From the NCBI GenBank assembly GCA_002269645.1, contig NIVC01002472.1, positions 1-64,000 on the forward strand: DNA of 64,000 nucleotides, written 5' to 3'. Source of the DNA: Macrostomum lignano. Taxonomy: Eukaryota. Position numbers and translations under genes: made by a program. Position 1 is the first letter of the stretch. Each line of letters starts with the position of its first letter. The notes under the pieces are model-generated. The model saw nothing but the letters and a program-made list of their open reading frames with translations, did no database searches and was not told where the DNA came from. Shown here one piece after another: positions 1 through 21,900 of the stretch.

Positions 1-328
1 AATCTCAGTTTTAGAATACATCTTAGTGTCAATTTCGGTTTAGAATACATCTTAGTGTCAGTTTCGGTTTTGTGTAGACATTGTTTACGCGCCCATGAGC
101 ATCGTCAATTAATTGTAGCATGGTGATATTCATTGCGTCACTATCTTCCTTTGAATAAGAGTCTGAAACATTTCTCTTTGCTAACAATAAATTATCTATT
201 TCCTCTCTCTTATATCCTTCATTTTCATTGGTGTATCGATCATCAGCTAACGCTATTGTTATTCCAGGTGCTATATCATTTGAATTTGACGAGTAAACCA
301 AATTGATTGCAGTATTCTTGTAACTCAT
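1..328 (-). CDS. Fibre-like repeat protein (YxKxExD repeats), 3'-truncated by the window edge and frameshifted
   Basis: ORF 29..328 has YKREEIDNLL and YSKEDSD. The roughly 30-nt tandem units at 1-75 read YTK(T)ETDTKM-YSK(T)EIDTKM-YSKTEI once single missing A bases are restored. Confidence 0.55.
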
Positions 329-753
329 TTTAATTGCTGCAAAATTTCATTATAGCTATCTCCTTTATCGATTCGGTGTAAAAAGTACAGCGACATTTGA
401 CCACAAAATTTCTTATCAAAATTTGAATTTGTTCTTCCATGTCTCCACATATTCTATTCTTTGTGTGATTAAACTTTTCCATAATTTCCAGTGTGGGCGT
501 AGTGCATAGGAATCAAAAAAATAAACCTTATCAGGAGCTGAAAATATAGCTGAATGATGTATACCCCGTTCTTTCGAAGTGTGAATATTTGTCATAAAGT
601 AACCATACTGTGGTAAATCAACAATTTCATCTCTCATGCGTAGCGAAATGGTTTTAACTTGAGATATTTTGCCCAATTTATCAGATCAATATTAGTCGTA
701 GTGTCAGTCCCAAACTTTTGTTTAAATGCATTCCATGTCTCAGCTTCGCTCAT
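325..753 (-). pseudogene. Adenain-like (Polinton PRO) cysteine protease, broken by at least 3 frameshifts
   Basis: Joining frames gives MSEAETWNAFKQKFGTDTTTNIDLINWAKYLKLKPFRY / MRDEIVDLPQYGYFMTN..GIHH..YFFDSY / QIQxFDKKFCGQMSLYFL..LK*. Catalytic H, D, Q and C are all present. ATG at 753, TGA at 325-327. Confidence 0.8.
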
Positions 754-762
754 TTTTAACAC

Positions 763-1553
763 TCATATTTGTCGTACGTGTAGATTTATAAATATTTCCT
801 CGCCATCAAAGTCGTATAGAACACCAGACTCATCTTCGATGACAAAGTCGAATGTGCTCAACATGTTTGTAGTTAGTGGTAGGTACACAGGATTTGCAGG
901 CTCTTGAATAATTTTACTTCCCATTGGGACAGAGAACGATGGAATTGAAAGAAGTATTTGCTTATCAATTAAATGATTTCCATTGGCTGGATCAGTGATA
1001 AAACCCCCTTTGATATTGAGACAACGAACCATGATCGCACTTCTAGCTCCGTCTATCCGAGCTGGATTTGGAGCTCTCTCAAATGGTTTCAAGTACACTT
1101 CCGAATTGAATCCTAACAGTCTTCTAAAGTTATTGGAATGTGCATCCCTGAAATCAACTTGATACTCTGTGGCTAACCGTAACTCAACTCTACGCGTGTC
1201 TAGGCTTGCACTGAAAACAATAGCCCCCTCTTTCCAATCATTTGCAGCTGTTAGCAATCTTTGAATCTCGCTTGACAGACTTTTAACTTCCCAGATCCCG
1301 CTTGAATCTTTATTTTTTTTCCATGTTCTACCACTATCCCTCGAGTATCGCAACTCATTATTGCCTCCTTCAATATTGTTAATAGCATCAAAGACTGCAA
1401 ACTTTTTTATACCAGCTTCGTATTCTCGATCTTCATACAAATTTATCGGAGTGCCTAGAGTTTGTCGAAATGGTTTTTAATTGAAAAGAAGTCAAATGTG
1501 CGTTGAAACTTTTTACTCAAGAGGATGTTGACTTTTTCTATTTCTTTTTCCAT
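763..1553 (-). CDS. Minor capsid protein (penton, single jelly roll)
   Basis: ORF 763..1440 carries Polinton penton motifs (INNI..NNELRY, GIWEV, LLGF, PMGSKII.EP.NPVYLP, DFDGEEIFINLH). Probable true start is ATG 1553 (TAAAAATG) with a frameshift near 1470-1480. Confidence 0.82.
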
Positions 1554-1555
1554 TT

Positions 1556-2287
1556 TTAAGCAAGTAATTCTGCTAGCTCTTTATCAACATTGTTATGTCC
1601 CTCTGCTTTTGCGGCTAGTAATGTCAACACTCTTTCACTGAGTCCAGATCCCGGTTTTACTCGATATCCTGGTGGATTATCTTTCAATATCCTTACTGCT
1701 TGCTTATAATTCCCACTTGATTTGGCTGCTGGATTTTTACAGTGTTCAATGAGGTTAACATAATCCTGCAATGTTTGCATCTTGAATTGCTTCAGCTCTT
1801 CACCATTTTCAGTTACTTTAGGCATTTTGAACAACTCTTCAAGATCTTCAGAAAATGGCATTCGAAATTCGTTGACAATGATGTCTCGACCTTGTTCATG
1901 GAATTCAACATCTATTACAGATGATCCAAATATATATCCAGCATCTGTTTTTTGAATTCGTATACTAGGTGCTGGTCTTTGAGTTATTGGAATCTTTCCA
2001 ATTTCTTCAATTATTTTGTCAAATACTTCCAGAGGTTCAAATCGTCCTTTTGGTGTACTTGATTGCGGAACTGGAACTTTTTGATTCTGAAGTTTATCAA
2101 CAAGGTTGGCATTGACACCAATAAATTCATCAAGCTTTTCTGTGACAGGTTTTTGAGCTAATGGAGCCACTCTTGTATATAAACTCTCTTCTCCAATTTT
2201 CAAATAGCGTTGAGCATCATTTCTGGATTTGTACATTTCTCGCTGCTTTGCTAAATTAATGAGTTCTCTTATATATTCATTAGTCAT
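1556..2287 (-). CDS. Conserved Polinton/adintovirus hypothetical protein (243 aa)
   Basis: Intact ORF between ATPase and penton. It has an N-terminal KPVTEKL motif and C-terminal GSGL..VLTLLAAKAEGHNN..ELAELL, resembling conserved uncharacterised Polinton ORFs (from recall). Confidence 0.6.
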   Translation of the reverse strand: MTNEYIRELINLAKQREMYKSRNDAQRYLKIGEESLYTRVAPLAQKPVTEKLDEFIGVNANLVDKLQNQKVPVPQSSTPKGRFEPLEVFDKIIEEIGKIPITQRPAPSIRIQKTDAGYIFGSSVIDVEFHEQGRDIIVNEFRMPFSEDLEELFKMPKVTENGEELKQFKMQTLQDYVNLIEHCKNPAAKSSGNYKQAVRILKDNPPGYRVKPGSGLSERVLTLLAAKAEGHNNVDKELAELLA

Positions 2288-2289
2288 TT

Positions 2290-3064
2290 TTACAATGGGA
2301 TTTTAGTTAGAACATCCTTATACAAATCTTGCTCATCCTCATCAGCTCTTGTATTTATATAGATATAGCCATACTTCTTTTTCCAAGCCTCTCTACATTT
2401 AGCCTTGAATATAGCGGGTTCATAATTCGTTTCTATATTTCTAGCAATGTGATTTCAAGTTTGCATCTTTTTGTTTAAAGATTATGTAACATGTCGTATT
2501 CTCCCTGACAGTATTGCGATCTAGTTTGGTAAAATTTTGAGCTAGATAAAAACCACAACAGTTTCCATGCCTGCCTCTCTGAAACAGACTTTCCTGAAAT
2601 GTTTGATTAGCCTCTCCCAAAACATCGTCCAATATCACACATGTCTTTAGTCCATTATGAAAAATTTCTTCATTTGGAGTATGGGAAAGAGTGACAGGAA
2701 TTTTCTCTATTACTTCTGAATTTTCTGATGTGCTTTGCACTCGACCAGGGTTGGCTGCCTCTCGACAAATATGTCTAATATCTTCAGGAGATGCATCCTC
2801 ACTCACCTGGTAGACATGATAGAGTGAGTTGATAAGAGAAGGTGGGAGACCATTTTCAAAGCCATATTTTAGAAACTGATACTCTGGATCCATTTGAGAT
2901 GCTCTGGGAACATATAAAACTAACTCATTAAAGTCAACTAGTTTTTCAGGACTTGTAAGAATATGGAATAGTAAATATGTTTTACCCGTATTTGTAGCGC
3001 CGATAATACAACATAAAAGAGGATTAGGGAAAATAGGATCATGCTGAAATTTTACTTTGGGCAT
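2290..3064 (-). CDS. A32/FtsK-like genome-packaging ATPase (one frameshift)
   Basis: Walker A GATNTGKT, Walker B CVILDD and LFQRGRH..FYLAQ..VRENT motifs. Removing one base in the AAA run at 2453-2455 extends the frame through HIARNIE..CREAWKKKYGYIYIN to TAA at 2290-2292. Confidence 0.92.
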
Positions 3065-3085
3065 TTAAAAAAAGAAAAAATGACC

Positions 3086-4450
3086 TTATTCGACGCGGGT
3101 CATTTGATATTCACTGGTAACTTTTATTACATTCTTTGTTTGTTCAAGAATTAGTGCAAAAGCAGTCAGCTCAACATTTGTTGACTTCTTGATAAATAAT
3201 TGAATATTCACTCCACTCTTGACCAGAAACTCATCTTGAGCTGTTAGATCAAAGCAAAAGATTGGATAGATGGTTAGAAAGTCTTGTTTATTGAATGGAG
3301 GAGTTACACCGAAACGGCTGCAGATGTCTTCGTACATTTCATACGCTCTGTGAATGTCTTGAGCTACTGGATCAATTTCAACATAATCATTCGGATACAT
3401 CACCTGATTTAATCTGACTTGAAGCTGGGTTATTTTCACTGCATTTGCTCCAGTTTTGTAAGACACATACTTGTGATCATTAACTATATATGATGGGTTG
3501 TTTACGTCATATTTGAAAGCTACAAAGATTGCAAGTGGCATATTGGAGATGTTGGCTATGTTCCATGTATATGGACTTCCTTGAATGAGTTGTGGCGGAA
3601 CCGTTACCCTCTCTGGAAATGATACTGTAATGTCCTTGTTGAGTGATTTTAGAAAAGCTGCTTCAGCACTGGGTGACAAAGTAATAGCAGGGATCCAAAT
3701 CTCAAAGCTATTAATAGTTAACTTAGCTTCCGTCCCGGCAGCTCCAAAGAAAATTTCAGCATCGTTAGTCTTTCTTGTCCATGTGAATTTATATTTAATT
3801 CCTTTGCTAATCTTCTGCCAATCAAGGAACCCAATGAGAGGTGTTAATGATAGTTTGATTGTTCCACCTCTGTTTGGAGCATTAGTGACATTGTTATAAT
3901 TTTCAAGCCTCCTAATGTATCCAGTATTCGAATCCTTCTTATTGAGTCTATTTTTCATAGCGATTGCTGCAGTTCTCACAGCTTCAGCATCTGCGTTGTT
4001 TGCTAGAGGTATATCAGAAACAGTCCCAGCATCTCCAGTGTCTGGAATCCATCCGTATGCTTCTCCAACTTCATTCATTAATTTTGAGTACATTACGGAC
4101 TTTAAGATTGTGTCATACTCTCCAGGATCATTATAGACTTTCTTTGTTCCTCCAATGTCAACTATGAGTTGAGAGAAAAGTCTCATAGGCCAATTATGTT
4201 CTAGAGTAATGTTCGTATTCAAGTCGGTGTTATCTCGTTGTGTTATTGAGTATTTTATACAACCGAATGCCTCTGACATGAGAATGTATGACTCTGTTGA
4301 ATTGACTTCATGAACTATTTGACCTCCTGCAACATTGAGATTATTAGTGCTACCTGGAGTTGGAGAAATCTTAATATAGTCTTCTTTCTTTTTGAAAAAG
4401 CTAAAAGTTTTGTCCTCATATATGCTCAGTATATCCTTTTTGTTCTCCAT
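3086..4450 (-). CDS. Major capsid protein (double jelly roll, hexon-like)
   Basis: Intact 454-aa ORF with Polinton MCP-type motifs: N..RLFSQLIVDIGG, IPA, AIFVAF, LQVRLNQVMYP, AYEMY, YPIFCFDLT. Confidence 0.88.
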   Translation of the reverse strand: MENKKDILSIYEDKTFSFFKKKEDYIKISPTPGSTNNLNVAGGQIVHEVNSTESYILMSEAFGCIKYSITQRDNTDLNTNITLEHNWPMRLFSQLIVDIGGTKKVYNDPGEYDTILKSVMYSKLMNEVGEAYGWIPDTGDAGTVSDIPLANNADAEAVRTAAIAMKNRLNKKDSNTGYIRRLENYNNVTNAPNRGGTIKLSLTPLIGFLDWQKISKGIKYKFTWTRKTNDAEIFFGAAGTEAKLTINSFEIWIPAITLSPSAEAAFLKSLNKDITVSFPERVTVPPQLIQGSPYTWNIANISNMPLAIFVAFKYDVNNPSYIVNDHKYVSYKTGANAVKITQLQVRLNQVMYPNDYVEIDPVAQDIHRAYEMYEDICSRFGVTPPFNKQDFLTIYPIFCFDLTAQDEFLVKSGVNIQLFIKKSTNVELTAFALILEQTKNVIKVTSEYQMTRVE

Positions 4451-4470
4451 TTTTATAAGAGAAATTTCAA

Positions 4471-4923
4471 CTAAGCTTCATGAGGTCTAAGAATTATCCC
4501 ATTACCCTGTTTCTCCTTTTCAACTTTAAACGTCTTTAGCAGCCACTTGACTGCTTCGCTGGGTACTTGTTCGACTCTTTTAGCCGCATCAACTAATACT
4601 CCACTCCCTTGAGCCTTTTTCAACTCTTCTAGTTTTTGCCGTTCAATGCTTTCTATTGTCTTATTATGTTTAGCATTGTTGGCTGTATTAACACTTTTTG
4701 CAATCATTGTACCAACTCCTGAGGCTGCTCCGATACCACCCAAAATTGCTGGTAGTAAGTCTAATAGAGGAATTATTCCACCTTCATGTTCTTTCTGTTT
4801 CTCTTGCAATTCTCGAATCTTCTCTTTAGAAAGATATTGCTTTTGCTTATTTACAGTAACATATCTTGGTTTTCCCTCTCGAACATATCGATTGAGTCTT
4901 GCTTCAGTGTTTTTCTCGCTCAT
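4471..4923 (-). CDS. Small putative virion protein with GG-preceded hydrophobic/amphipathic segment (cupiennin/pX-like class of adintoviruses)
   Basis: HEGG|IIPLLDLLPAILGGIGAASGVGTMIAKSVN motif with a basic N-terminus, located directly upstream of the MCP gene. Confidence 0.62.
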   Translation of the reverse strand: MSEKNTEARLNRYVREGKPRYVTVNKQKQYLSKEKIRELQEKQKEHEGGIIPLLDLLPAILGGIGAASGVGTMIAKSVNTANNAKHNKTIESIERQKLEELKKAQGSGVLVDAAKRVEQVPSEAVKWLLKTFKVEKEKQGNGIILRPHEA

Positions 4924-4931
4924 TTTTAAGG

Positions 4932-5354
4932 TCAGAATTTCTTCAAACCATTGCCTTGTCTCAAAGACACTTGAGACTGTTCTGCTGTTCCTAGAGCCTT
5001 TTTAACAATATCTTGAATAGCCTTATTTGATTGAGAAGCTATCTGTTGCTCTTCTTCCATTCTTTTCTTTGCTTCTTTATCTCTACGTTTCTTTTTAATA
5101 TATTCCAGTTCCTCACCTGCTTTAGACATGTCACTGTATGATTTCTTCGCATCGAATATGTTCTTCGCTGTGGTAGCTGTTTTACCTATTGCATCAGCTC
5201 CACTCACAATTTTACTTCCATGATTTGATAAAAAGTTTGTGACACCACTGATCATATCACCAATTCCTTCACCCTCTTTATCAGCTAGTAGTTGTGAATC
5301 AGACGTTTCAATCTGACCTTTCGCCCGTTTGCAGTTTGTTCGATAGGCGCTCAT
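4932..5354 (-). CDS. Small putative virion/core protein (140 aa) with GEG-preceded amphipathic helix
   Basis: Start reassigned to ATG 5354 in TAAAAATG context (MSAYRTNC...). It has GEGIGDMISGVTNFL followed by a charged coiled-coil-like stretch. Confidence 0.55.
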   Translation of the reverse strand: MSAYRTNCKRAKGQIETSDSQLLADKEGEGIGDMISGVTNFLSNHGSKIVSGADAIGKTATTAKNIFDAKKSYSDMSKAGEELEYIKKKRRDKEAKKRMEEEQQIASQSNKAIQDIVKKALGTAEQSQVSLRQGNGLKKF

Positions 5355-6666
5355 TTTTAGTTGAAAAATTTGCTGGTAGAAGCTGGGATTTGTAAAATGA
5401 TCCAATGATTTCTTCTCCATTCTCATCCTCAATAATGTAGGTTATGGGATTGGAGTAAACTATTTTCTTTATCCTAAACACTTCTGAAATTTTCCAATAT
5501 CCTCTTCGACCCTTTTCAAAGTGCTCCTTATATCTATAGATATGAACTTTGTCACCTACTTTGAAGTTTGGTTTCTCATTTGAATACTCGAAAGTTGGCT
5601 TTGGTACTCGCTCAGGATGTTTAGATGCTTCTGAAGGAGTTATCAGAATCTCAGAATGGATTGTGTTGTTGTATTTTTCAACAATAGCTGGCAATGTGTG
5701 GAGCCACTTCTGATTACCCTGTAGATCAAATTCAAACCAGAGTTTATTTGTGAGAGTACGATTGAACCTCTCAATCATTGCATTCTTGGACTCGCCATAA
5801 ATTGAAAACATCTTGTTAATATATTCACCCCTTTCATCCTTCTTTCTAATGTTGTCTTTTGAAAACGAGTATAGCTTGTACATATGCTGATTATAAAACT
5901 CCTTGCCTTCATCTACACAAAGTCTCTCTGATCGTCTTCCTGATTCCTTAAATACTTTTTGGAAAGCTTCTGCAACTTCCGCTCCCGTCTTTGTTTTCAA
6001 AGGAACTGCCCAGGCGTAACGTGTAAAACCATCTATGATAGTGAGAGCATATTTGTAACCTCTTTCGGGCGGTAGGATAATGATATCTGCATGCCAAATT
6101 GTGTCTTTTGCATAGTGAATCATTTTTCTAAATACTCTTGGCTTTCTGTATTCCCTATGTAATTTTACTGCATCTTCATAGCTAAGACCCTTACCATAAA
6201 TTGTTAGACAGTCTATACAATTGTTGGGGTTGTGAGTATGAATTCCTAATCCAAACCGAACTTTAGCATTGATAATACGCTTTACTAGATTTCTAATGAG
6301 TCTCTCCTTTACCGACAAGTCGCTGGTTGGAATAGCATCTAAATCAGCTATCATTTTTTCATCAGCAATATGCTTCTTTGCTAGGGCTTCCTCTGGAGTT
6401 GAAGACGTCTTTTCAGCATCTCTATAGCTTTTGTCATGATAGTAAGCAGTCCAATCAATTGGATTAATTGGTAGACTATCATACCGAGGCCAGTCTGTAA
6501 TTGGATTGAGTCTCTTGTCTAAATTTGTACCTGGGCCAGTGAAAGAATACCCTGGAATATGAAATTCGCCAGGATATTTTCCAGTGGCGAAGATGGGTGG
6601 TAGTTTTGTTATAGCTGACTGAATATCCAATGCAGAACCTAGAAATAATGGTTTACTGAAGGCCAT
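5308..6666 (-). CDS. Parvovirus-type phospholipase A2 (PLA2X) fused to a Polinton DDE integrase
   Basis: N-terminal PGYSFTGPGT (Ca loop) and AYYHDKSY (HDxxY active site). C-terminal WHAD / CVDEGKEF / MIERFNRTL DDE core, followed by FKVGDKV..FEKG..SEVFRI..GSFY. No chromodomain at the end. Confidence 0.92.
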   Translation of the reverse strand: MAFSKPLFLGSALDIQSAITKLPPIFATGKYPGEFHIPGYSFTGPGTNLDKRLNPITDWPRYDSLPINPIDWTAYYHDKSYRDAEKTSSTPEEALAKKHIADEKMIADLDAIPTSDLSVKERLIRNLVKRIINAKVRFGLGIHTHNPNNCIDCLTIYGKGLSYEDAVKLHREYRKPRVFRKMIHYAKDTIWHADIIILPPERGYKYALTIIDGFTRYAWAVPLKTKTGAEVAEAFQKVFKESGRRSERLCVDEGKEFYNQHMYKLYSFSKDNIRKKDERGEYINKMFSIYGESKNAMIERFNRTLTNKLWFEFDLQGNQKWLHTLPAIVEKYNNTIHSEILITPSEASKHPERVPKPTFEYSNEKPNFKVGDKVHIYRYKEHFEKGRRGYWKISEVFRIKKIVYSNPITYIIEDENGEEIIGSFYKSQLLPANFSTKNERLSNKLQTGERSD

Positions 6667-6699
6667 TTTTATAAAAATAAATTTAAGTAATCTACAGAC

Positions 6700-6870
6700 T
6701 TAGGCTGCGTTAACTGCTGTAGCAATAGAGCCTGCTGCACCTGCCTGTTCTATGAAAGGTAGATTTGTCTTTTACTAAGTTGGATATGGTGCTTATAGTA
6801 TCAAAAAAGACCTTCTCCATTATACTCTAGTGGTTCGCCTATTGTATAGTCTCTTATCTTGCATGATTCT
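6700..6870 (-). pseudogene. Degenerate paralog of the small GxG-motif virion proteins
   Basis: Frame-broken translation GEG(L)FDTISTISNLVKD / NLPFIEQAGAAGSIATAVNAA* resembles GEGIGDMISGVTNFL and GAASGVGTMIAKSVN of the neighbouring ORFs. Confidence 0.45.
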
Positions 6871-6884
6871 GTAACGTGATGCGC

Positions 6885-7375
6885 TTCGTGTCTTTTTAGA
6901 AAGGGGTGAACACAATAGACTAGCATGAGACGCTCCTATTGGTTGCCAATAGCAATGTTCAGTGCTGCGGTTATGTATAGTTAGTTTGGTGAGTTCCTGC
7001 GAGAGCCTATTTGACCATACGCTTCACTCAGTGTGGGTTTCGCACGACGTTAAAGCTGAGTCACAATATAAAAATTGCTTTGAGGAGAATTTCTCCTGCT
7101 ATTTGTTCCATTTTTAAGATACATAATTTAGAAAAGGGTTAGTGAAATCGTCCGTAGGTAGGGTCGCGAGAGCATTGTTCGTTTGTAACTTGCGTGGCCC
7201 ACTTCATGTCTTTTTTTACAGCTAGATAGAGGGTGAACACAAAAGATTTGCACGAGCCACTCCTATTGGATGCCAAAACCAAACACTTTTTGGCAGAAAT
7301 TTTGGCAAAAATTTTGGTTTTGGCAGAAATTTTGGCAGCCAATAGAAATGTTGAGTGCTGCGGTTAGTGCTCTAG
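6885..7375. repeat. Two diverged direct-repeat blocks with inverted repeats at the viral flank
   Basis: Blocks at about 6885-6975 and 7200-7370 share GTCTTTTT..GGGTGAACACAA..CTCCTATTGG..GCCAATAG.AATGTT.AGTGCTGCGGTTA. The second block has a 13-bp inverted repeat TGCCAAAACCAAA / TTTGGTTTTGGCA. Confidence 0.7.
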
Positions 7376-7856
7376 TAGTCGAGTATGCATGTCACGAAAA
7401 ATTTAAATTAGCGCTCCATGTTCTTGAATGTCTTCTATTATCTTTAAGTACAAATCTAGAACAGCATTAAAGCCATTTCAAAGCCTCGGGACAAAGCGAA
7501 TGTGCAGGAGCAAATTATTGACTTTTGTAAAAGCATTGTATGCCTCGAGTGGACAATTTTTATGCATAGATGGTAGCTGACTGATCGTTAAAAGCAAAGC
7601 TAGTAAGATTGGCTTATTGAAGGGCGTTATGCAATGGGAGAAAAGACTATTATTAAATTTGATGCTAGTTTTGAAATGATGAAACCTGAAAATAGGTTAT
7701 TTTAACCCACGAATCAAAAATTTCTTGTGATTTTACTCACGAAATCGCGCAAAAAGCAATTTTTCGAAACTTTTGAAAAATCACTAAAATCACTGTTTTC
7801 AGACAATTTTCACCTGTTTTTAGTCGATTTTTATCTGTTTTTTGTGATTTTTCAAA

Positions 7857-10180
7857 ATGGGTTGCGCTCAAACCTACTTTTCCTATACTACTTGCGTTAG
7901 AGTTGAGAGTTCAACTCTACACGAGCGAATTAGACGTCTGTCTGTGTGCCTGGCAATAGCGGTACTTTCGTTTCTGCTTCTTTCGTTCTGCTCTACGCTC
8001 TCAGCACAGCTCGGTTACCACCTGGAGCAGCTACCGGCCAACTGCTATCTACAGCAGCCACTCCCAAGCAGCCCAGCCTGTGCACCAGCGAGGCCTGCAT
8101 AAGTGCAAGCGCACTGCTGCAGAGCCACATCGACCGTTCCGCGGACCCGTGCCAAGACTTCTACAGCTTCGCCTGCGGCGGTTTCCATAAAAGCCACCCC
8201 TTCACTGCCGAGACCGTGGGCTCAGTACTACAGGAGGACAACTCCATTCAAGGAAATCTATTTGAGATGATGTACTTCAAGAACTTGTCCAAGCCCAGAG
8301 ACGCAAGCGAAGCGCAGCTGTTCCAGACGCTGCGATACATCTACGGGACCTGCATGGATTGGCGCGGCTCCAGCGTTCTGAATTCTAAGAAAGAGGAATT
8401 TCTCCCGAACAGCTGGCAGACTGGAGAACGACCTTTCGACATGAAATCATTAGTGAGACCTTTGTTGGACTTTCTAGAGGGCTACTCAGGCATTGAAGAC
8501 TTCCTAGCGAGACTGGTGATATCCGGTACATCGGATCTGTTCAGATTGTCGCCAGGCTCGGTGGAGCGGAGTCTGAGATTGCACTCGTCACCATACTACC
8601 TATCTACCCTGAAATCCTGGAATCATGTTTTCAATGACGGAATTTCTGCATTAGAAGATTTCAGTGATCTCATAGACCTGAATTTGACTGTTAGTATAAA
8701 TCAGATGAAGCCTGCAGTTCAGCAAATGTTAAACAAAGGCGAATCGTATTTGAAAGTTGGTCCTTACCATCTGGAACAGCTGCAGAATTTTACTCAGGTT
8801 GAGGCAGAAAATCTCAACTTTAACTGGACGGAGTTTTACAGCGCTGTGAGCAAGTATTCAGCCAATAAGTTACCTCCCTCAATGAAAGTTGAAATTATTA
8901 GGTACCCGCTATTATTTTTTGTACTCGAGCAGCTCACAACGGAGCTGGAGCACAGACAGGGACCCTACTATGACTTTATTCGCCTGGACTCTGCACTGTC
9001 GGCAGCAAATTTTCTTCCAGACGAATCGTTTAAATTCTTTAAAAACCTTTTCGGGCAACAAAAGTATCTCATTCATGAGAAAGAAGGCCGGAACAGCTCG
9101 AGACTGTGCATGGACATGATGCTGGGCTCCATGCCGCCAGTGGCTTTGCAGATGTTCAGCAGCGCCTTCGTCACAGACGACTTCAACTCAGTGAAAGTGG
9201 TAATCGGCGACATCAAGGAGGCCATGTGGGAGAATGTGGACAGCGAGGCGTGGATTGAGCAGCCGAGTAAGGCAGCAATTAAGAAGAGAATCGATGCCAT
9301 GCGGAGCACCGTCGGCTACCCCCAGTTCAACATGTCCGAGTTCACCGAAGGCTACTCAAAAGTTGCTGCTCAAGTTAATCAAAGCAGAACATTTGGAGAT
9401 GTTGTTTTGCAGTTTAAAAGCACTCAGCTTCAGAATCGACTTTGGATTGCGACAGCTGACAAACAGGACATGATGCCAAAAGATATGTTTACAAGAATGT
9501 TTACTGTCAACGCTCATTATTCACCATACGACAATTCGATTTTTATCTACTTTGGCCTGCTGCTCAGCAAAATTTACATGAAGGGCTACCCTGACTACCT
9601 GTTGTACGGTGGCGTCGGCTACATAATCGGCCACGAGGTCGGGCACGGCTGCGATAGATTAGTCAGTAAATTTAGTGTTGGAAACAAACAGAAACGTATA
9701 TTTGACAATGTCACAGCGCTGCGGTACGGCAATAAAACTGACTGTCTGGCTAATTTCTACAGCCAGATCATCGATCCTGAGTTCGCGAAATCCGAAATTT
9801 CGGAAGAGGAAACGGAAGCAGAGGTTCAAAAGTTTGATGAAAATTTTGCCGATATTGTTGGCACCAATTCCGCTTTCCTAGCCTACAGAAACAGAGCAGC
9901 AAAATTGCTGAAGTCTGGGAATCGGCCTCAGATGCTTCCAGGAGAGAAATTGGCAGGCCTGACACCTGATCAGCTGTTCTTCATCCAGCAGGCCCAGCTG
10001 CACTGCACCAAGGCGGAAATGGATGCTCTGATTTCTCGACAAAAAAATTATTCTCACTCGCCACCGCATCCCAGAGTGAACGGCCAGGTGATGCAGTCGA
10101 AGGACTTCGCCAGGGTGTTCAACTGCAAGCCGGGAGATCCAATGTACTTGGCTAACGATAAAAAGTGTCACTTCTGGTGA
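7857..10180 (+). CDS. Intronless M13 family metallopeptidase (neprilysin/ECE-like), type II membrane protein
   Basis: CTSEAC, DPCQDFYSFACGG, VNAHY, HEVGH zinc motif, ENFAD, HSPPHPRVNG and F.C..G.PM are present. ATG 7857 plus one restored T near 7980 gives a continuous signal anchor LSVCLAIAVLSFLLLFVLLYALS joining the 744-aa ORF. Confidence 0.93.
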
Positions 10181-12846: not shown

Positions 12847-15800
12847 TGTTAGGGTTAGTTGTGTGCCTGCCAAGCACCCTCTGGTTTGTGTGTACGCTGT
12901 GTGTCCCCCTCCTCAGTGCGCATGGTGGGGTGGTTGTTGCGAGAGACTTAAGTTAAATATACAGTATTACAAGGTATTGCAGACCTCTCAGTAAGCGCTT
13001 AATTGTTGATTTTTTCTTGTTAGCTAAATTGACGGCCCTCAGACTTGTTCAATTTCTTGTTCAGACAACATGGCGCCCGAACTAAAATCAAAGTAAAGTG
13101 AAAGTATTGGCTCTATAGTTCTACAGTGACTCACCCGATTTCTTATCAGTTCAGCATGGGCTCCAAAAAGCGTGGAGTTTTGAGAGCGACGGTCACCAGA
13201 TTAGCCCAGAAAGCCCAAGACCTGCTCAACTCAGGGGCTGCTGAGGAAGACATCGACAGCGTACTGGAAGCCCTGCGCCTCAAGAAGCAACAGCTGCTGG
13301 CAGCGGATAAAGAGCTGTCCGTTGAGATCGACGAGAAAATACTCCAAGAGTAAGTGGAGAAGACGATGGAGTGAGAGCTACTGGCTGGGAAGATGATTTC
13401 GAGTCTTGCCAAGCGACTGCAGAGTCTTCAGGCCGAGCGAGAAAGCCGCATGCAGGCTAAAGATCAACAGCAAACGAAAAAGTCAACTCCATCCACGTCA
13501 CCGCGAGAGAATTCTGCTTTGACGACTACGCCGGCCATTAGGCTGCCGCCGCCAGCATTCAATGGAGATTGGACGCAATGGACTGCATTCTGGGACCGCT
13601 TCAGCTCCAGCATCCACGACAACCCGAGCCTCAGCGTCGTCGAAAAGTTTAGCTACCTGCAATCGTGCCTTTCAGGAGAAGCCAAGAATTCGATCGCCGG
13701 CCGTAAAATCACAGCCGAGAACTACAAGATCGATAAGATCGACAAGATCGATAACCTGCAACGACGGTTTGGATCCCGGAGTGGAGCCGTGCGCGAGCAT
13801 CTGGCGAAGTTCTCGGCGCTGACTTGTTCAGGTGCTTCAGTCCACCAACTCAGAAACTTCCACGATCAAGTCAACGGCAATGTCCGCAGCCTGGAGAATC
13901 TCGGGGTGAGTGTACGTTGCTTCATACGAAGTGGTCCGTCTCGGGATGCTTAGAACTGCCAGGATGGTTGCCTTACGGCCTTTCTATGGTGTCAGTCAGC
14001 TACAGGTGACGGATGAGAACGGCTTAGATTCGATCAAGGAATTCCTCAATGTCTTGGACTTGAAATCCTGGTTAGAGAGGAAGCGGCTTTCGGAGCAGGA
14101 GTTCAAGCAGCCAGTTCATCAGAGGCTTCCACTGTTGACAGGCAAACCAAGGAAGGCACGGTATCTGCTTTGCAGACGAAGGCTACGAAGGTCGCCAGAG
14201 CCAGAGCCTTATTGTGACGCTGAACATGCTCCGGAGAGTTGCAATCGACTGGTGGATGTGCCTGCTAGGCTTCAGTTCTTGAAAGAACAAAGACGCTGCT
14301 TCAGTTGCCTCTCTAAAGGTCATGCCACAAAGACTTGTTATCAAAAGAAGTAGTGTGACTTCTGCAAGTTAAAGCATCATCCCAGTCTCTGCGCTGCGCG
14401 AGTGGAACAGCCACCGAGACCGGCAGACAAGACGCCTAGTTGCAACTTCGATACGGCGGGTTCAGGAAAGAAGAAATTCGAACAGTCGGCCACGCAGAGT
14501 GTCAAGAGCCACGAAGTAAAGACAATGGCGATGGTCACCAAGGTCCAGACAGTGGTTCTTCCCACCGCGGGAGCTGTACTGATTTCACCAGATGGCTGCA
14601 GTGAAACACGGGTTCGAATTCTCTTCGACTCTGCGAGCAACCGTTCGTTCATCCTGTCGGGCGTAGCTGAGCGTATGGGACTCTGTGTGATAGGCAAAGA
14701 AACAATGGAAGTGACGACATTTGGAGGCACAAAGCCCAAGGTCGTGCAAACGGAGAAGATCGATTTCCAACTTCGTAAGCTCGACGGCGTCACTCCCTTC
14801 ACATTGCGCGCCAACACAGTGCCCTACATCTGCTCTCATCAACAGCTTGCGCAGCGATCACTTCCCACATCTGGATCTGGCAGACTGAGACATCGGCAGC
14901 GAGCAGCATCCAGACATCAACATCCTCATAGGAGCTGACCAGTTCTATGACCTTGTCACAGGACAGATAGATCGTTCTGAAATCAGCACCGAGCTGGTTG
15001 CGGTAGCCAGTCAGCTTGGGTGGCTCCTGTGTGGCTCCTTGTCCGACGCCATTTCGGCAGGAGGACTGAAAGAAAAAAAGAGCAAGTGCTTCTCTGCTGC
15101 ACGCACGGAACAACAAAAGCCTTGACAACAGTTGACGACGTGGCATTCGAGAGGCTTTAGAGTAACCTGAGCAGGCTGCGCTGTGAACCCGCACTGCTGC
15201 AGGAGTACCACCGCATTCTGATGAGCCAGAAAGAAGCTGGAATAGTGAGGAGCGAGCAGGAACTTTGACAGCTGCAGAAGTGTCCGAAGCAAAGGAGCGT
15301 TGGCTGAAAGAGGTACAACGAAGGAGTTTCTCTGCTGAGATTGCTCACTTTAAAAGGTCGACAGCATCTACGGATCTTGCAAAGCAGCTGAATCTCTTCC
15401 TCGACAGCAAAGGTCTGCTCCAAAGTCGGGGTCGATTGAGAGAATCAAACGTTGTTGCAGCTGTTGACTGCCCCATCCTCATCCCGAACAAGACTCATCT
15501 AGAAGTTCTCCTCATCCGAGACGCGCACAGCACCCTTTGCAAACTGCATGAGAAGTTTTGGCTGATCCGTGGCAGGCAGCGAGTGAAGGCAATTCTTGGA
15601 AAATGCGTCGTCTGCAGGCGTCTTCAGGGACTCCCGTTCGCTGTGATGCAAGTTCCTGCGTTGCCAGAATCTCGCTTGAAAGCAATGAGAGCGTTCGAGT
15701 GGAGCAGGCTCGACTACTGTGGTCCGGTCAAGCTGAGAAAAGACACTGCTGTCGAAAAGGGCTACATGTTAGTGTTCACCTGCGCAGCAACGCGAGCGCT

Positions 15801-17115
15801 TCATCTAGAACTGGTGAACGATCTGTAAGACCATAATTGCGAGAAAAATCAGCACGAGGGCTCAAAGGCAAAGTTAGTCGATATATATATTTGTCATTCA
15901 CTATGTACGCGCGTACATTCCGATCGATATAGGTTCAGGTGAATAAAAGCGTGTCCAACCCCCCAGAGTAGGCCAACCCCCAAAACAGCCAACACAACGA
16001 ACACCAAAACTCACAGATCTAACAACTGAGACCTTCTTAGAGCCCTAAGGCGATTCTGTGCAAGGAGAGGTATCCCTAGTCTCATTAGCGATAACGCTAA
16101 GACATTCGCCAAAGCCGCGCGGATATTGCAAGCATCGGAGAGTCAAAAGGTTCAGGAGTTCTGCGCCACTCGGAAGATTACCTGGCAGTTTATCACGGAA
16201 CGCGCACCCTGGCAAGGAAGCTTCTGGGAGCGACTGATGAAGGACATCAAGCTGGCACTGCCCAAAACCCTTCTGAATTCAAGTCTAACACTGGACGAAC
16301 TGCTGACAGTGCTCATGGAGGTGGAGGCGGTGCTCAACAGCCGCCCTCTGCTCTACGTGGATGCCGAGCCCGAAGGAGAAGTTCTGACACCGGCACACTT
16401 CCTGGTGTTACAGCGGCTAACGGCGGAGCCTACTTCTAGTTGCGCGCCAGATCTTCTGCTACCGTTGCCAAGACTGCTGAAGCGAATGCGCGCCAGACTT
16501 CATGCCTTCTGGGACTGCTGGGAGCGGCAGTATCTGACCAGCTTGCGTGAACATCGGCTCAATCCTAAGCACGGCGTGATCGGAGAGGCGACGGTCGGTG
16601 ACATCGTCCTGGTGAAAGGCGAAGCTGGCCAACCGAGGCTCACTTGGTGTTCTTGCATTATAGAGGCAGTGCATCCGGGACGAGACGAGTGAGATCGGCA
16701 ACAGTTCGAGTCGCGCAAAGGCCAGGCCGCGGACCCAGGAGATGCTTGATTCGCCGGCCGGTTGAAAACCTGATTTTGCTAGAAGCCGTGACTGAATTAA
16801 CGGTTATTGACGTTTCTAAAGCTGACAGTGACTATTGACGTCTGAGTTCTCAGTCTTTATCCCTCCTTAGTTTCAATCTTCAAGTTCGTATCCTATCGTG
16901 CTCGTGCTCTGTGAGTAAACTTCTCAACGCGACATTTGGTTTTCGCTATGGTACAGTACGCTGGTGATGATGCTTACATTTTTGCTCATTGGCGCCTTTT
17001 GTGTTTCTGCTTTTTCCATAACTTAGTACTTTGGTGATGGTGCGTTACGTTATCAAGTATGTTGTAATGATAAAGCATCATTAGGGGGGAGTGTTAGGGT
17101 TTGTTGTGTGCCTGC
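12847..17115 (+). mobile_element. BEL/Pao LTR retrotransposon, degenerate, RT/RNase H deleted
   Basis: 5' LTR 12847-13070 (TG..CA), PBS TGGCGCCCGAAC at 13071 and DUF1759-type gag (FNGDWTQWTAFWDRF). Zinc knuckle CFSCLSKGHATKTC, protease ILFDSASNRSFI, integrase (DYCGP, SDNAKTF, APWQGSFWERL) and DUF5641-like tail follow. PPT AGGGGGAG at about 17083 precedes a 24-bp remnant of the 3' LTR at 17092. Confidence 0.92.
15824..16015. mobile_element. Solo LTR (192 bp) inserted in the BEL integrase
   Basis: TG...CA ends, GATC 4-bp TSD (15820-15823 and 16016-16019) and an internal AATAAA. Excision restores N-D-L-T-T-E-T-F. Confidence 0.85.
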
Positions 17116-18950: not shown

Positions 18951-21900
18951 ATGGGACCTGTTTTTGTTTATCTGTCCTTCTAATCCATTCTGTAGGATCT
19001 TCAACAGTTAAAAGCAAACTCAAAACCATTTTAGGATTTGAGCTGATTCAAGTGCCAAAACACAAGCCAGCCAAGTCCTCCTCAGTGGACCCACGCGCTG
19101 GGAGCCCAATCGGCATTAATGACGGCCTGACCGGCGGGCCCTTGGTGCACACTCGCGGCGGCGACCCGCAGCCCTGGATGCTGCTTGACTTGGAGCTGCC
19201 GTACGCCATCTTCGGTGCTCGAGTTTGGAATCGGCGGGACAAGTGGGCGCGGCGATTCTCAAAAATCAAATTTGGTAAGCAGTAAGCAGTCATCGGAATG
19301 GGCGGTACTGCCTCAGCGCTGGTTATGGGATGATTTTATCGAAACCGCTGCGCCAATGTGGCCACAACCCTCCTGCGAATATTATTTATTTCAGCGAGTG
19401 CAAGCCTACATGGCTACATGTAGCTACCTAGCAAGAGCAGGTGAGTATCTTAAAACATTCCTAGACTGAGGCGTCTGCAGCAGCAAGTTTCCTTCATAAA
19501 TTTATGAAAGAAAATGATGTGTAAATAAAAAAGCAGCAGCTTTGAAAGCCAGCTACGAGCGTATTTACTAGCCTAATATATCAGCATGCCCTTGTAAGCT
19601 TTGGCTTAAAGCATTTAAGCAACCCCCATAAGCCACATAATTTCAGAAATATTCCCATGAGCCCTGACATCTTAAAATTCTCTCCATGAGCCACAGAATT
19701 TAAGAAGTCCTCTATGAGACTTTATGTCGGATAGCTTGGTCGCATTAGGTCGATTACTAATGACATTGGCCACTCGATAGTTCTCTCTGTTTGATCACTC
19801 GTTTCCGAACTCATAATTTCGCATTGGCGACAAGGATGGCTACAACTGGTAGAATATAGACTCAGACATTGAGATATAGTTGCAGAGGCTTGAACAGTAC
19901 TTCATCTGCAATGATGTCTGAGACGTGGCGAAGGTCGCAACGCTTGTGGCCGCTATCGGAGAGGATGCTTGAACAAGGTTCTTCAGAATTTGTGCTTGAC
20001 AGAAACTGTGGCCTCCAAGTCCTACTCTGACCTAGCAGTTATCCAGAAGGCACATTATTCTACACAGACGCCAATGCTATCCGCCAGATTCCGCTTTCAA
20101 CACCGCTTACAGAAGCCCAGCGAGAGTCTCACTGACTTTTATTGCTGGCCTCGGAGCATAGAAAATTTGAGGCCACTCTGGATGACAGACTGCGCGACCA
20201 GCTTGTCTTCGGTCTCCGCAGCGGCGTGCACCGTGCAAAGCTGCTGGAGGTCGCACAGCCTGACTTCAAGACGCTCGTTGCCAGAGTCGACAAATTGGAG
20301 GCAGCGAAGAGATCGTCGTCGGAAATGGCGCACGGGGCTGAGCAGTTGCCTATCCGCGTCTTCACAAGAATTTCACTGCGCCCAAAGCAAAGGGGTCAAT
20401 AAGCACCTCCCCCGGAAAGCCCTGCCGCCAATCTTGAGCCAACGCTATGCGAACAGCAACTGCCACAGGCGCGTGCGCGAGCTGCGGTAGTGAGCACATT
20501 TGGCGACAGTGTAAGTCTACTGGGGCTAAGTGCCAAAACTGCGGCAAAGTCGGGCACATCCGGAAGGTGTGCCGGACTTCTAAGCTGCACAAGTTGGATC
20601 CAGAGCCTGCTGAGTTACAGGAGCCTCTCTTCAGTATTAGTCAGAGCGGGTCGAGCAAGGGTCTGACGGTCGAGCTGCGGCTCCAAGGCAAGCCATGTCT
20701 CTTCGAGGTAACTGGCTCCGCCCTCACCGTCGTCATCCGGAAGAGCCTTCAGGAGGATAGGTCTCTGTATATCGCCGACATCCACAGTGTTGCGGACCTA
20801 CATATGAGGGAGCTTCTGGAGGCCGGAGCTGTACCCAATGCCGCGCATCGAAGACGTGCTGCAAAGCTGGATGGCGGCTGCAAATGGTCCAAGCTGGACA
20901 GGTCAAACGTCTTCCTGCAGCTGCCGTTGTCTGAGGATAATAGCCCTTCTTGATCATCAACACGCAGCGAGGATTTTACCATCTGAACCAACACCAGATC
21001 GACGCGGACTGCGGCCGCTGACTTGTCCGACCGGGCGAGCTTGGCTGGGTGTTGAACCAGTGGGGCGTGGCTCTTGTGCGATGGTGCGGGGTGGTGTACG
21101 TGCCTAGGTTACGTGCCCCCTGTTTGGGTGCCTTTTTTAGCGCAGGGCCGGGCGGAGCGTACTTTGCCTTGTAGTAACTCGCAATAGCAGCAAGTGCTTC
21201 GTTGTTTTTCCTTTATTCAAGCTGTTTGTGCACGTGCGTAATTTTTTGTCCCAATGTTTATTCCTGACAATGTTCCGTCTTGAAAATACACGCTTATTAA
21301 TTAAATCTAACTATACACAAGTTAATCCTGCGTTCGATTTCTTCTCTACGCAGAGAGAAGTCGAAAATGAGAGACCACTGCTTTGATGTAAGTCGACCAA
21401 ATGTTTGCTAACCGTTTCTGCTACTCCTTCACTGTCCTGCACGATGCCTGAGAAATATTCACCAGAGGGCAATTCTGCCCATTCTTTGACTCCTAAACAC
21501 ATACAGCTCACTCGCAGTAATCAGAACCGGCTTCCGGGTACTTTACTTTGGCGACTCAGCTCGTACTTACTAACCACGGATCCGGGACCTCATCCGTGAA
21601 CCTGTTCAGAGTTTTTATTTAACAGTCAGTGCGCAAAATTAATTCTACACACCAAATACTCGTGCAAAGCTTTACATTCTTTCCTCTCTACCCGCTAACT
21701 CTTTGAACTGATGTTTCGACAGATTATAAGATAAACTTTTGCGCTACAAAACACCTGGTCCTCCATTTATGCTACACTTTCTCTGCAGGCGTCACCAATA
21801 ACCCCTCTGTGTGGACAGCATTCAACAAAAACCTTTTCGGAATTTGTTTCTACTACACCAACGTCCCAACTGTTGAGGAAAACCCAATCAACATCACCTG

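Follow-up and report, generated by a model that had tools for sequence, protein, structure and literature searches.

In animal Polintons, particle formation and the carriage of integrase are still largely inferred. Within a window of 64,000 nucleotides of Macrostomum lignano DNA (the whole stretch analysed, from contig NIVC01002472.1), one stop-free reading frame of 452 codons joins a parvovirus-type phospholipase A2 (PLA2) in frame to a DDE integrase. Is the joint genuine, how widespread is it, and what might be served by having the two enzymes start life as a single chain? The sequence-only reading that drew attention to the frame described it correctly. Both domains score above their Pfam cut-offs, Phospholip_A2_4 (PF08398) over aa 34-110 (E 1.3e-8, 35.4 bits against a cut-off of 23.9) and rve (PF00665) over aa 186-262 (E 7.1e-10), and the linker is as it had been quoted, RFGLGIHTHNPNNCIDCLTIYGKGL. 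The parts are as follows.

5308-6666, minus strand: PLA2-integrase fusion frame P0001, 452 aa, beginning with the TAAAAATG motif
6247-6567, minus strand: parvovirus-type PLA2 domain (aa 34-140; PF08398), all-helical in the predicted model
6529-6543, minus strand: Ca-loop motif FTGPG (aa 42-46), read in the translation
6424-6438, minus strand: catalytic HDxxY (His77, Asp78, Tyr81; HDKSY, aa 77-81), from the alignment of fusions
6361-6363, minus strand: Asp102 of the PLA2, conserved in the alignment
6352-6354, minus strand: Met105, where translation might start internally ahead of the integrase, in the context GAAAAAATG
5365-6180, minus strand: Polinton RVE integrase (aa about 163-434), with catalytic core (Asp194, Asp252, Glu299) and C-terminal beta domain and without chromodomain, from Pfam, alignment and model

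The hallmarks of a PLA2 of this type are an aromatic-x-G-x-G Ca-loop, HDxxY and an Asp downstream. FTGPG, His77-Asp78-Tyr81 and Asp102 are all present and, in the alignment of relatives, invariant or nearly so, with HDxxY kept in 31 of 33 fusions. The DDE triad of the integrase (Asp194, Asp252, Glu299) is also intact in the alignment. Read in this way, the catalytic residues are intact in both halves of the protein. With the whole 452-aa model as query, the closest fold match of the PLA2 is a weak one to rice sPLA2 2wg7 (Z 7.3, rmsd 4.3, 96 residues aligned, aa 31-147), in the noise range for helical bundles, and AAV VP1 sequences match it only at E 0.28 or worse. The predicted integrase half aligns with PFV integrase (Z 18.8, rmsd 4.0, 232 residues aligned), its top viral fold match is MELD-virus integrase (E 6e-19), and in the model its retroviral-type fold is clear. 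It shares the DDE core and C-terminal beta domain with the Polinton/Maverick RVE integrases (PF00665) and differs from them in its N-terminal PLA2 and its lack of a chromodomain. That lack, which had been noticed from the letters, is confirmed by the failure of Pfam to find a Chromo domain in the frame, whose last conserved motif is only 23 residues before its end; just four of 21 fusions scored have a chromo-sized tail.

Among the first 200 codons, in-frame ATGs are at 1, 105 and 182 only, so there is no start between the end of the PLA2 and LHREYRKPR, the first integrase-like motif, as had also been claimed. Met105 is inside the PLA2, in its second helix, and its A-rich context, GAAAAAATG, is one base (the T) off the start motif TAAAAATG. 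The latter occurs eight times on the minus strand, and not at all on the plus strand, of window positions 1-7200, and marks seven gene starts.

An assembly artefact or chance read-through can be ruled out from other copies, in which a stop or frameshift between the domains, together with an independent start for the integrase, had been the thing to look for. Thirty loci from the same genome make up the near-copy set (40 scored of 314 candidates), L001 being the window itself and L002, a match to it over 1500 flanking bases, perhaps a duplicate of it. In 28 of the 30, no stop or frameshift interrupts codons 130-175, and the domains are not split. The full 452-codon frame is present in nine loci, window included, though some of these may be assembly duplicates. 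Of 238 candidates for the junction peptide 150 were scored, and just six have a stop within the match. The 150 comprise 56 near copies and 94 members of a second family, in which identity is about 52%. All six loci read of this second Polinton family (L067-L072) are fused, at about 57-60% identity over the protein.

How far does the architecture extend? Both domains are present in 30 of the best 150 matches (10,998 in all) among 50%-identity cluster representatives, one of them in reverse order, a count that is partly circular as it rests on a profile built from those same matches. Independently, Pfam detected the pair in 21 of 36 matches picked by hand, and also in P0117, P0025 and L065. The identity of fused relatives to the window protein falls to 31-35%. 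A fused query favours fused matches, and so the 20% share is an upper bound. Of the 120 unfused proteins in the best 150, 103 have an intact integrase start without a PLA2 and the other 17 are fragments. With these counts the fusion is a recurrent minority architecture, and the contrary prospect raised at the outset, that it is the common state, did not materialize. Its distribution among relatives makes the fusion an old architecture that recurs, and not the usual state.

Behind the PLA2 the integrase N-terminus is of two kinds, and in P0117 the order is reversed (integrase-chromodomain-PLA2), which points to the fusion having arisen more than once. On a quick integrase tree (144 of 154 rows, 10 short rows being left out) the fused/unfused state needs 18 changes, with starred branches forcing at least six, and 24 of the 30 fusions are within one weakly supported group of 50. 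A single origin is not supported by this weak tree, over which the fusions are scattered; origins are not to be counted from it, since its 'unfused' class includes the 17 fragments. A metagenome-contig collection yielded two loci, one a full fusion, and a word-index search just three near and three shorter relatives. No relative of the fusion, or of the intron nuclease considered below, was found in a viral-contig collection.

The two parts are known ones. In alpha-adintoviruses PLA2X has a gene to itself and a pX-like domain at its C-terminus (PMC8502044). Like the PLA2 here, it is parvovirus-VP1-like, is found in a Polinton that also has genes for a DJR capsid, an ATPase and an integrase, and has a proposed role in entry; unlike it, the PLA2 here is followed in frame by the integrase in place of the pX-like domain. 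The main text of PMC8502044 makes no mention of a fusion, and separate PLA2 genes are noted in PMC3671162, PMC5803895 and PMC11296320. No PLA2-integrase fusion was found in the running text of the literature searched, including PMC11071296, PMC11131425, PMC11161782 and bioRxiv 10.1101/2023.08.22.554363, though a map may carry such a label. The combination of the two is apparently an undescribed domain architecture.

The element in which the gene lies has a DJR major capsid, an A32 ATPase and an integrase, the gene set of a Polinton or alpha-adintovirus.

7887-7892, plus strand: element terminus (..ACTACT), where similarity to sister copies stops, with GC-richer host DNA beyond
4471-5354, minus strand: two small downstream frames, putative core proteins rich in Gly-x-Gly/Gly-Gly, from the ORF list; the first begins at TAAAAATG within the tail of the fusion frame
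3086-4450, minus strand: DJR capsid frame (PF21738, E 1.9e-13)
2441-3064, minus strand: A32-like packaging ATPase (Pfam), shorter than its counterpart in a sister copy (257 aa)
325-753, minus strand: cysteine-protease-like gene, frameshifted in the window copy, with His/Asp/Gln/Cys order seen by eye

The fusion is the first gene in from the end at 7892, and after it come the two small frames, the capsid, the ATPase, a penton-like frame and the frameshifted protease-like gene. Only this one terminus is in the window, as the contig begins inside the element and the other is beyond the contig start. In sister loci L031 and L032 the protease-like gene is a 143-codon frame, recognized by motif order only, and no Pfam, PHROG or PDB match to it was found. 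Sister loci also have an 819-aa frame that is PolB-like on motif reading; Pfam has no match for either PolB or the protease. By eye, the replication ends differ, L031 having a minus-strand PolB-like frame at 5828-9361, and L032 plus-strand PolB-like pieces at 6105-9899 with an opposite primase-like fragment. The 300 bp upstream of the ATG in L001-L030 are of at least three unrelated types (about 55% identity) on near-identical integrase cores. The ends of the element are mosaic. A single-frame M13 (neprilysin-like) peptidase adjoins the element end at window positions 8267-10180, and further on, at 13393-16692 and 20074-21107, are broken LTR-retrotransposon-like frames with gag, protease and integrase motifs recognizable by eye.

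What could the joining of the two enzymes be for? In retroviral Gag-Pol an enzyme enters the particle within a precursor, and parvoviral VP1u ties a PLA2 to a second virion protein. Here, in a dsDNA element, the PLA2 is tied not to a capsid protein but to the integrase. A polyprotein logic is plausible, with an experimental analogue in mavirus, and the fusion is probably a virion-packaged precursor that is cut at Gly-x-Gly by the element's predicted cysteine protease to release lipase and integrase. The full-length chain would be packaged into the virion, where the predicted protease would cut it at KVRFGL↓G (the arrow marking the cut) and, in the subclade of the window element, a second time at IYGK↓G. 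The freed PLA2 would then attack the endosome membrane as a lipase, and ready-made integrase would be delivered with the genome, one molecule per lipase. All beyond one chain with two intact enzymes we infer. Plain transposition has no use for a PLA2, and that dozens of lineages have tied one to their integrase speaks for a stage in which virions carry packaged integrase. If true, a dsDNA virus would have a Gag-Pol-like strategy with entry enzyme and integrase in one precursor.

The nearest counterpart is mavirus. Integrase MV02 is present in its virions along with the predicted lipase MV13, which occurs there as two fragments divided near GK↓G, and the mavirus protease cuts GG↓X and GX↓G (PMC6048507). 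As in the model proposed here, an rve integrase and a lipase are in the particle with a protease of that specificity; unlike it, mavirus has separate genes and an alpha/beta-hydrolase lipase, whereas the present case is of one chain with a PLA2 (PMC6048507). Polinton PLA2s have been proposed to be packaged, for entry (PMC4642659). The retention of catalytic residues in both halves, the mavirus analogue and this proposal are why the packaged precursor is favoured over its rivals. Counting against it are two mavirus GxG sites that stay uncut (PMC6048507), the fusions whose linkers lack Gly-x-Gly, the assignment of the protease by eye only and its frameshift in the window copy, and the potential of Met105 to yield an integrase-only product.

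Much turns on the linker.

6244-6264, minus strand: KVRFGLG (aa 135-141), conserved Gly-x-Gly at the PLA2 C-terminus and main candidate protease site, from alignment and linker counts
6208-6240, minus strand: H-T-H-N-P-N-N-C-x2-C linker peptide, of which only H-x3/4-C-x2-C is kept, in a subclade only; low-confidence in the model
6187-6201, minus strand: IYGKG (aa 156-160), the other Gly-x-Gly, which matches the adenoviral (M/I/L)xGx↓G; in the subclade only

Gly-x-Gly is present in 27 of the 33 linkers of forward fusions and missing from six, and in 24 of the 33 the PLA2 ends in basic-x-hydrophobic-G-x-G. The reversed fusion P0117 also has a Gly-x-Gly (QKGDG) between its halves. Linker length is 0-64 residues in most fusions, several having fewer than 10. 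In the predicted model aa 139-158 have a pLDDT below 50, between two confident domains. The linker is flexible in most fusions. In same-length windows of the integrase parts the expectation for Gly-x-Gly is 0.0, against 27 of 33 linkers, but this is a soft control and weak evidence, since Gly at other spacings is scarce there as well (GxG 0 against 8.5 when shuffled; G-x2-G 6 and G-x3-G 2, also low). GG or GxG motifs are present in many PLA2 N-termini and in the small frames of the element.

The adenoviral protease consensus is (M/I/L/N/Q)xGG↓X or (M/I/L/N/Q)xGX↓G (PMC6048507), and a strict match to it is present anywhere in the linker in only 5 of 33. KxRFGLG fits just the looser mavirus GX↓G rule and breaks the strict adenoviral P4 rule, whereas IYGK↓G, the cut site that the sequence-only reading had put forward, does fit the adenoviral rule. 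That site also recurs in the subclade, where H-x3/4-CxxC is followed by a second Gly-x-Gly (IYGKG, SYGNG, NFGNG and LYGSG, with LSGSG in the second family), so that a peptide of about 19 residues would lie between two candidate sites. As a general site, however, it is rejected, being kept only in the CxxC subclade; the general candidate is of the KVRFGLG type. P0002, though 79% identical, has neither the linker cysteines nor IYGKG. A free PLA2, P0156, ends with KARFGLG, the same motif as at the PLA2 end of the fusion, and KxRFGLG is for this reason possibly not a working site; it may be a helix or structural cap, a vestige or an inherited processing site. The fusion offers a single-protein test of Polinton protease specificity.

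These linker features bear directly on an uncut chain, in which the PLA2, a module for packaging and entry, is never detached and the integrase works as a fusion. The six linkers without Gly-x-Gly, the several shorter than 10 residues, the violation of the adenoviral P4 rule by the main motif and the same motif at the end of free PLA2s would all suit it. It is nevertheless unlikely given that Gly-x-Gly is at the junction in both domain orders, that a second one has been gained in the subclade of the window element and that the linker is low-confidence in the model.

Another possibility is that gene compaction gave rise to the fusion incidentally, adjacent genes having lost a stop and a start, with the working integrase made from Met105 and the long form dispensable. 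Met105 is in its A-rich GAAAAAATG, Met is frequent in that alignment column, in intron-bearing copies Met105 opens a 348-codon frame, and the scatter of fusions across the integrase tree (18 changes) is what compaction could give. But Met105 lacks the T of the TAAAAATG seen at gene starts, its column is often Ile, Phe or Leu, and in no near-copy is there an independent start between the domains. Further, the PLA2 half has 12 synonymous against 5 non-synonymous codon differences between alleles (exon 2), and HDxxY has been retained in all but two of the 33 fusions. Compaction is accordingly improbable as the explanation.

A further suggestion made from the letters was that the H-x-H-x4-C-x2-C linker might form a small zinc-binding domain at the integrase N-terminus, comparable to the retroviral HHCC. 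This is very improbable: H-x3/4-CxxC is kept across the subclade (P0003-P0005 and the second family) at 52-60% identity, and so is probably under some constraint, but the first His of H-x-H is absent from all relatives and altered in near-copies L013 and L014, CxxC is in only 4 of 33 fusions and H-x-H..CxxC in one, P0002 is without the peptide altogether, the pLDDT is below 50, and the peptide is upstream of the second Gly-x-Gly, cleavage at which would remove it from the integrase. On the alignment it is a subclade extra between the two sites and no integrase HHCC domain.

To return to the fusion gene, it has a further peculiarity in being the target of a group I intron that carries a restriction-like nuclease. 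In 10 of the 30 same-genome loci an insert of 864-891 nt is present between codons 44 and 45 (window site 6535/6534), in the Ca-loop codons of the PLA2; the window copy is an empty allele. Inserts in L026, L021, L063, L056 and L055 match Rfam RF00028 (group I) at 88.9, 82.6, 88.1, 84.7 and 74.3 bits respectively, against a gathering threshold of 50. P1 folds with a U-G pair at the splice site in nine of nine loci, the intron-terminal G is in place as cut in eight of the nine, the ninth being shifted one base, and exact removal of the intron would preserve the frame. An intron search, in which 40 of 189 candidates were scored, gave 28 matches of near full length. Intron-exon junctions number 27 and empty sites 29, and over the intron-bearing loci L021-L030, L053-L056, L061, L063 and L064 the intron is 863-891 nt long. 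By these signatures the intron in sister copies of the fusion gene is of group I and putatively self-splicing. In the contig sets of four runs two joints across the intron were found, both matching genomic intronless alleles (the window type and the C293/C1178 type), which explain them and make them uninformative on splicing.

Group I introns are, according to a review, absent from animals except non-bilaterian lineages and five sharks (PMC10964413), and they are present in protist Polinton-like viruses (PMC12220804). Shared with the protist case is an RF00028 intron that interrupts a protein gene in an integrated Polinton-like element, here in sister copies only; unlike it, the intron here is in PLA2 Ca-loop codons and has a PD-(D/E)xK restriction-enzyme-like frame (PMC12220804). 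This frame, of 211-228 codons, starts at the element's own TAAAAATG motif and resembles type II restriction enzymes, with Pfam RE_Eco47II at E 1.4e-5, just under the cut-off, and model matches to EcoO109I (E 1.3e-4) and AvaII. Ten homologues of the nuclease (47-60% identity) are in other assemblies and run into the same intron core. P0003 and P0004 start with the translated 3′ end of the intron, so these relatives carry it too; annotation pipelines will split or mislabel such genes, as these two illustrate.

The sites of EcoO109I and AvaII are of GGNCC type. GGNCC is present once in window positions 1-6700 (6.2 expected), at 6533-6537, in the Gly44-Pro45 codons. It is absent from 9.4 kb of L031 (9.4 expected) and 8.8 kb of L032 (7.8 expected), copies that are not independent, and occurs 95 times in 19 kb of adjoining host DNA, where 50 would be expected. 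A tentative picture that takes in all of this, and that we hold to be somewhat short of probable, is of a widespread, repeatedly evolved Polinton class with a protease-processed precursor of entry enzyme and integrase, the indispensable gene for which would be gated in this host by a self-splicing group I intron whose restriction-like nuclease cuts GGNCC, a sequence that would have been purged from the element except at the Gly-Pro codons of the Ca-loop, where it is unavoidable.

Intron-bearing and empty alleles share 90-95% identity close to the insertion site, against 99.8% over the integrase core, and allele mosaics run in both directions, a pattern as compatible with ordinary recombination as with homing. 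In the second family the corresponding site holds inserts of 303-333 nt in five of six loci; some of these end in A, and two have different ends. The short inserts gave no Rfam match though they can be aligned to the same intron core. A trace of the nuclease gene is also left in the window itself.

7073-7130, minus strand: remnant (58 bp) of the intron nuclease gene's 5′ end, lying upstream of the fusion gene (76% identity by blastn, E 7e-6), with TAAAAATG at 7111

At the matching upstream position, L072 has a fuller nuclease gene.
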